From Escherichia coli (lineage in GTDB: Bacteria > Pseudomonadota > Gammaproteobacteria > Enterobacterales > Enterobacteriaceae): 1,434 nucleotides of DNA. Position 1 is the first letter of the stretch, and each line of letters begins with the position of its first letter. The stretch lies in the NCBI RefSeq assembly GCF_003334385.1, contig NZ_QOWN01000112.1, one strand, 5' to 3'. The position numbers were made by a program, and so were the translations under genes. Of the stretch, positions 606-713 are shown piece after piece. The notes beneath the pieces are model-generated. The model was not told where the DNA came from, made no database searches, and worked only from the letters and a program-made list of their open reading frames with translations.

Positions 606-713
606 CGTTAACCTCTGTCTGTCTCTGGAATGAGAGGCAGACTACTCGCCGATTGTCATAAGGTAAAAGTCTCATTTATGATGAGTTCCATTGGATTTAC
701 TTATAGGTTGCGA
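606..713. promoter_or_regulatory. cynR-cynT divergent intergenic control region (108 bp), expected to hold the overlapping divergent promoters and the CynR operator.
   Basis: The region lies between the divergent start codons of cynT (605, -) and cynR (714, +). LysR-type regulators typically bind in such regions and autoregulate. It is AT-rich relative to the flanking coding DNA. Confidence 0.55.
653..682 (+). promoter_or_regulatory. Candidate sigma70 promoter for cynR: -35 TTGTCA (653-658), 18-bp spacer, -10 TATGAT (677-682). It overlaps the dyad TCATAA (656-661) / TTATGA (676-681), a possible CynR operator half-site pair.
   Basis: Hexamers match the consensus TTGACA/TATAAT at 5/6 each with 18-bp spacing. 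The predicted transcription start is about 25 nt upstream of the cynR ATG at 714. The 6-bp inverted repeat with 14-bp spacer overlaps the promoter, as expected for LysR autoregulation. Sequence inspection only. Confidence 0.3.

Follow-up and report, generated by a model that had tools for sequence, protein, structure and literature searches.

In E. coli, CynR is a LysR-type regulator that activates cynTSX with cyanate and represses its own gene, cynR, independently of cyanate, as summarised in PMC5002191. According to the same paper, the cynR and cynT promoters overlap, and a CynR DNase I footprint of about 60 bp is credited to Lamblin and Fuchs. Two elements are distinguished there: R1, ATAAGTAAA, the high-affinity element, and R2, ATAAGGTAA, which overlaps the whole cynR promoter together with the cynT −35. 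PMC5002191 also proposes three 15-bp sites of the form ATAA-N7-TTAT, whose centres lie at −66, −44 and −34 relative to the start of cynT. LysR-type dimers occupy 15-bp T-N11-A sites (PMC5002191, PMC11495319), and the LysR-type layout consists of an RS site near −65 and AS1 and AS2 sites over the −35 (PMC11495319).

The DNA analysed here, referred to as the window, is a stretch of 1,434 nucleotides that carries the corresponding intergenic region. Sequence identity, a mapped cynR start, and conservation and covariation across orthologous loci are the observations made on it. Together with the published map, they make it probable that positions 653–682 hold the σ70 promoter of cynR, facing the CynR-dependent cynT promoter, with a CynR tetramer anchored at 690–704 and its second dimer placed within 658–682.

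The cyn fragment and its IS421 ends

The window consists of parts of two divergent genes, each bounded by the end of an insertion sequence:

1–76, no strand assigned: IS421 (IS4/IS186-like) end, truncating cynT; the same IS end as at 1358–1434, inverted
77–605, minus strand: cynT (carbonic anhydrase), GTG start at 605, residues 1–176 of 219 kept, truncated by IS421
714–1357, plus strand: cynR (LysR-type regulator), ATG at 714, residues 1–215 of 299 kept, truncated by IS421
1358–1434, no strand assigned: IS421 end inserted in cynR; the same IS end as at 1–76, inverted

From position 77 to 1357, the window shows 100% identity to E. coli K-12 MG1655, without a single mismatch, and the K-12 literature is therefore valid for this locus. 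The spacer between cynT and cynR covers 606–713 (108 bp), so that a regulator and its target gene diverge across roughly 100 bp, the layout typical of LysR-type systems. The original prediction had described a control region left intact between truncated genes, and this description holds: the K-12 sequence is retained without mismatch, and IS421 cuts both genes. Translation of cynR continues into IS421, adding a 19-residue tail that ends at a stop codon at 1416–1418. The open reading frame list contains a 262-aa frame whose ATG, at 630, precedes the true cynR start codon at 714; this frame extends into the IS.

Because IS421 interrupts cynR past residue 215, this copy probably yields no full-length CynR; it would follow that the cynT promoter is silent and the cynR promoter unrepressed. 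The control region in this genome is probably a functionless relic, both cynR and cynT being cut by IS421, and it should be an unregulated one if the genome is without another cynR copy. A known structured RNA was also considered for the window and rejected, as the sole Rfam match lies inside cynT at chance level (E = 0.35).

At the two edges, positions 1–79 and 1356–1434 form a perfect 79-nt terminal inverted repeat. In strains that have either junction in common with the window, the annotation of this element is IS421-family transposase. The IS421 terminus is CATAAGCGCTAACTTAAGGGTTG, a 23-bp terminal repeat, and a 10-bp target duplication is found at IS421 in strain E308. The two IS421 copies are inverted, with the 3′ side of the transposase towards the cyn fragment. 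The sequence suggests that the window is a whole short-read contig with a repeat of about 77 nt at each end. Both IS junctions together occur in none of 5,426 complete E. coli genomes.

Several further observations concern these junctions. The cynR junction at 1357/1358 (codon 215) looks like a hotspot for IS421/IS186, and its target, GGGGCTACATCC, is G-rich and then C-rich. At least 10 strains carry the IS there in the orientation of the window, with matches covering 77–1434. At least four other strains match 77–1380 only, that is, 23 nt into the IS, which suggests an IS at the same cynR site in the opposite orientation. In E. coli SCU-104 (1794–3605), the IS421 at the cynT junction has iap and cysD on its other side; these genes are not cyn-lac neighbours in K-12, implying an IS-mediated rearrangement. 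A composite transposon mobilised on plasmids was rejected: among the 8 listed of 12 plasmid matches, the cyn segment is uninterrupted in all. The eight comprise seven large E. coli plasmids of 214–242 kb, which come mostly from laboratory cell cultures and are interpreted as F′ episomes, and one 4.8-Mb record.

The overlapping promoters of cynR and cynT

The promoter elements are arranged on the two strands as follows:

653–658, plus strand: cynR −35 TTGTCA, 5/6 consensus positions, specific to the Escherichia lineage
677–682, plus strand: cynR −10 TATGAT, conserved, making up most of the right arm of the originally predicted dyad
690, plus strand: cynR transcription start (A), from TSS-seq
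662–667, minus strand: cynT −35 TTTACC, overlapping the CynR activation site
639–644, minus strand: cynT −10 TAGTCT, weak, at a fixed position relative to the conserved core
631, minus strand: cynT transcription start, inferred from the published site centres (−66, −44, −34), 7 nt past the −10

The cynR hexamers together match the consensus at 10 of 12 positions, and their 18-bp spacer falls within the 16–18 bp of σ70 promoters. A scan for σ70-like sites returns one site in the whole window, with about 0.9 expected by chance from shuffles. Kim et al. 2012 (PMC3415461, supplementary file 2) place the transcription start of cynR at 357,938 (minus strand) and give its 5′ UTR as 24 nt; the start derives from one dataset with a low count of 6 reads. 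The upstream sequence printed for this start, GACTACTCGCCGATTGTCATAAGGTAAAAGTCTCATTTATGATGAGTTCCA, equals window 640–690, so that +1 is A690. TATGAT consequently occupies −13 to −8, leaving 7 nt between the −10 and +1, within the expected 5–9 nt. The supplementary data of Conway 2014, SMRT-Cappable-seq and Cho 2014 yielded no TSS for cynR or cynT.

Conservation was assessed across orthologous loci. When one genome per species was searched with K-12 CynR, 80 loci were obtained, 60 of which have a divergent cynT or cynS 106–152 bp upstream, and 30 non-redundant representatives were drawn from the orthologous loci for column conservation. Four Photorhabdus loci, with spacers of 298–1346 bp, were left out. 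A gapless 47-bp core, corresponding to window 658–704, is common to all 60 loci. Its length is constant across gamma- and beta-proteobacteria, and most Pseudomonas loci have cynS, not cynT, as the first gene on the divergent side.

Within this core, the cynR −10 is retained. Across the 30 representatives, T677, A681 and T682 never vary, A678 occurs in 24, and at least four positions of TATAAT are matched in 29. The hexamers found across orthologues (TATGAT, TATAAT, TACAAT and others) follow the pattern of a −10 element, with TAnnAT kept in the 60 loci, while positions 676 and 679–680 vary freely. The −35 location, unlike the conserved −10, matches only 2/6 consensus positions in most orthologues. 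The predicted σ70 promoter TTGTCA-N18-TATGAT aimed at cynR is thus supported both by the conserved TAnnAT and by the proposed comparison with published start mapping, which places the start at 690, seven bases after TATGAT (PMC3415461).

On the opposite strand, the cynT −35 agrees with TTGACA at 4–5 of 6 positions in 28/30 representatives. The cynT −10 hexamers of the 30 representatives are mostly of the form xAxxxT at a fixed position (GAAGAT, TAGCCT, TAACCT), and the −10 is called suboptimal in an azide-biosensor preprint, which contains no promoter map at base level. If the dyad at 690–704 is taken as the −66 site, the cynT start would lie at 631 and the other two centres at 675 and 665. 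A start at 631 fits TTTACC (667–662)-N17-TAGTCT (644–639) on the minus strand. The plus-strand list of uninduced-cell Cappable-seq (PMC4782308) contains no cynT TSS.

The TCATAA/TTATGA dyad and the CynR sites

The dyad shares its interval with the following elements:

656–681, no strand assigned: dyad TCATAA-N14-TTATGA, present, not conserved as a dyad
658–672, no strand assigned: promoter-proximal CynR activation site, published R2 and IR3, centred at −34 of cynT
665–679, no strand assigned: candidate second activation sub-site AAAAG-N5-TTTAT, centred at about −41 of cynT
690–704, no strand assigned: principal recognition site of CynR, the T-N11-A dyad ATTGG-N5-CTTAT, from published R1/IR1 and conservation

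The arms TCATAA (656–661) and TTATGA (676–681), with their 14-bp spacer, and the promoter hexamers lie exactly where they had been placed. Apart from the dyad, the 108-bp intergenic region has no perfect 6-bp inverted repeat with a spacer of 0–20 bp. At least one such repeat appears in 31% of 5000 dinucleotide-preserving shuffles of this region; confining the spacer to 10–16 bp lowers the share to 12%. On sequence statistics alone, the dyad is not beyond chance, and the caution attached to the original prediction, that a 6-bp dyad may arise by chance, is borne out.

The same prediction took the dyad as a candidate CynR operator; in such a model, a CynR dimer or tetramer would bind it symmetrically and repress cynR. 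In favour of this reading, both arms lie inside the CynR-protected R2 region and their ATAA and TTAT cores resemble the ATAA-N7-TTAT motif (PMC5002191); the four inner pairs are, moreover, complementary in enteric and Burkholderia cepacia-group loci. The geometry and the alignment argue against it. The half-site centres of the dyad are 20 bp apart, compared with about 11 bp in a 15-bp LysR-type T-N11-A site, and the spacing of one helical turn is thus missing from the dyad, not from the region. The six pairs reach a mean complementarity of 0.52 across orthologues, compared with 0.51 from column composition; 30% of shuffles attain the observed mean, and the outer two pairs reach only 0.27. Compensatory change is absent: in the 42 loci in which 661 is G, the partner 676 is never C. 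With the chance rate and the position of the main site outside 653–682 added, a symmetric operator at the dyad is very improbable.

The main CynR site is found further towards cynR. R1 corresponds to window 696–704 on the minus strand and R2 to 658–666 on the plus strand. The segment 690–704 is a 15-bp T-N11-A dyad centred at −66 of cynT, which agrees with the position near −65 of the target promoter expected for LysR-type sites. Among the 30 representatives, it is the top-ranked 15-bp dyad of the 5-N5-5 type, with a mean complementarity of 0.75. Invariant columns (30/30) are A658, T659, T664, A667, A668, T677, A681, T682, A690, T691, C700, A703 and T704, and A660, G663, G669 and T675 are near-invariant. 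Columns 670–671 are near-invariant as A and C; the window matches C671 and has T at 670. By position, both CynR segments overlap the regulator's own promoter, 690–704 covering +1 to +15 of cynR and 658–682 covering −32 to −8. CynR binding, a footprint that alters with inducer (both credited to Lamblin and Fuchs 1994) and autorepression are as reported at second hand in PMC5002191, and so are the footprint boundaries. The comparison with the published footprint, which the prediction had called for, therefore has two sides: the interval 653–682 lies within the bound region, and the site of highest affinity, 690–704, lies outside that interval. Likewise, autoregulation where two divergent promoters overlap stands as a general idea, with repression taken from the literature, and the dyad as its operator does not.

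The left arm of the dyad is explained by this map. Its ATAA belongs to a genuine CynR half-site, ATAAG at 658–662, which forms the left half of the activation site, lies in the R2 described in PMC5002191 and is strongly conserved. Block 658–662 shows a complementarity of 0.82 to block 700–704 against a null of 0.73, and none of 2000 shuffles reaches the observed value. The bases at 661 and 701 form a complementary pair in 58 of the 60 loci (A·T in 16, G·C in 42); these counts ignore kinship, about 36 of the 60 loci being from Pseudomonas, and both states are present within Enterobacterales and within Burkholderiaceae. ATAAG covaries with 700–704 and not with the right arm of the dyad; its specificity is that of the main site's distal half.

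TTATGA, the right arm, consists largely of the cynR −10 hexamer, and in E. coli and Burkholderia it could double, through TTTAT at 675–679, as the right-hand half of a weak sub-site at 665–679. This sub-site matches ATAAG-N5-CTTAT at 8/10 specified positions in E. coli and Burkholderia and weakly in Pseudomonas. A scan of the window with up to two mismatches returns only two matches, one of which is 665–679; the consensus is partly derived from orthologues of this region, which makes the test partly circular. The right halves of the activation sites are unlike the half-site consensus. For the second sub-site, three possible placements, with centres at 672, 675 or 678, are indistinguishable in silico.

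Alternatively, the right arm could serve as the −10 only, without CynR contact, with repression exerted solely through 690–704 and 658–672 and the dyad coincidental. The conservation of T677, A678, A681 and T682 has the pattern of a −10 hexamer, the freedom at 676 and 679–680 agrees with it, and dyads of this kind readily arise by chance. This reading is nonetheless unlikely: the half-site consensus match at 665–679 speaks against it, A681 and the A674/T675 pair are more invariant than a −10 alone requires, and the published IR2 at −44 includes these bases (PMC5002191).

The published IR2 centre at −44 lies 3 bp from the centre of 665–679. A slight revision of the published map is conceivable from the alignment, though doubtful: 658–662 tracks 700–704 across lineages, and the best second sub-site in E. 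coli would be 665–679 at −41, not −44. If so, the CynR dimer would shift by about 7 bp on induction, not 10 bp, and the two dyad arms would mark the outer half of its uninduced and of its induced position.

Two structural candidates in the same interval were rejected. The single-strand MFE fold does not run through the arms of the dyad and is built on a small palindrome at 671–685 instead (−3 kcal/mol, z −1.55), and a cruciform or hairpin formed by the dyad is rejected on this fold. The palindrome itself, CTCAT-TTATG-ATGAG of the 5-N5-5 type, is centred on the cynR −10 and is perfect in some Burkholderia loci (L013 and L019). As a CynR site it was rejected, only its inner AT/AT pairs (674/682 and 675/681) being conserved overall.

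A proposed tetramer model and its relation to known LysR-type promoters

In the proposed model, CynR would act as a LysR-type tetramer. One dimer would anchor on ATTGG-N5-CTTAT at 690–704, over the cynR start, and the second would rest on the weaker activation sites within 658–682, over the cynR −35 to −10 and the cynT −35. Both dimers together would occlude the whole cynR promoter, giving autorepression. With cyanate, the promoter-proximal dimer would shift and the DNA bend would relax, leading to activation of cynT. The footprint, the autorepression and the DNA bending in this model are taken from the literature, and the exact sub-site boundaries and the sliding step are inferred. The dyad arms, together with the −10, would represent alternative overlapping positions of the second dimer, not one symmetric operator; at 20 bp apart, they would not be bound by one dimer at once. 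In conclusion, the dyad is a by-product of the half-site ATAAG at 658–662 and the −10, possibly with an overlapping half of a sub-site.

For annotation, the outcome amounts to a correction: the cynR promoter is called correctly, labelling the 6-N14-6 dyad as the operator is not warranted, and the high-affinity site is 690–704. The region provides an example of a coincidental dyad that arises from two overlapping sub-sites and a −10 hexamer. The published assignments of R1/R2 and IR1/IR3 are independently supported, at the level of sequence, by the comparison of 60 loci.

The control region of cynR and cynT is already known biology, footprinted and modelled since the 1990s. It is the same locus as the cynR-cynTSX control region of E. 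coli K-12 (Sung and Fuchs; Lamblin and Fuchs 1993/1994, as summarised in PMC5002191). The promoters, the R1/R2 motifs and the IR1/IR2/IR3 sites are all the same as in K-12. The two differ in the flanking genes, IS421 here cutting cynR short at residue 215 and cynT at residue 176, and a full-length regulator for this region is probably not made here. The sliding-dimer LysR-type promoters (ilvY-ilvC, oxyR-oxyS, occR-occQ, BenM and CbnR) have in common with this locus a high-affinity T-N11-A site near −65, over the regulator promoter or start. Weaker activation sites between −35 and −45, autorepression and inducer-dependent relaxation of a DNA bend are likewise shared by these promoters and cynR-cynT, and no material difference separates them. 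As in DntR and OccR, the activation sub-sites of cynR-cynT are poorly symmetric, which makes their exact limits uncertain.
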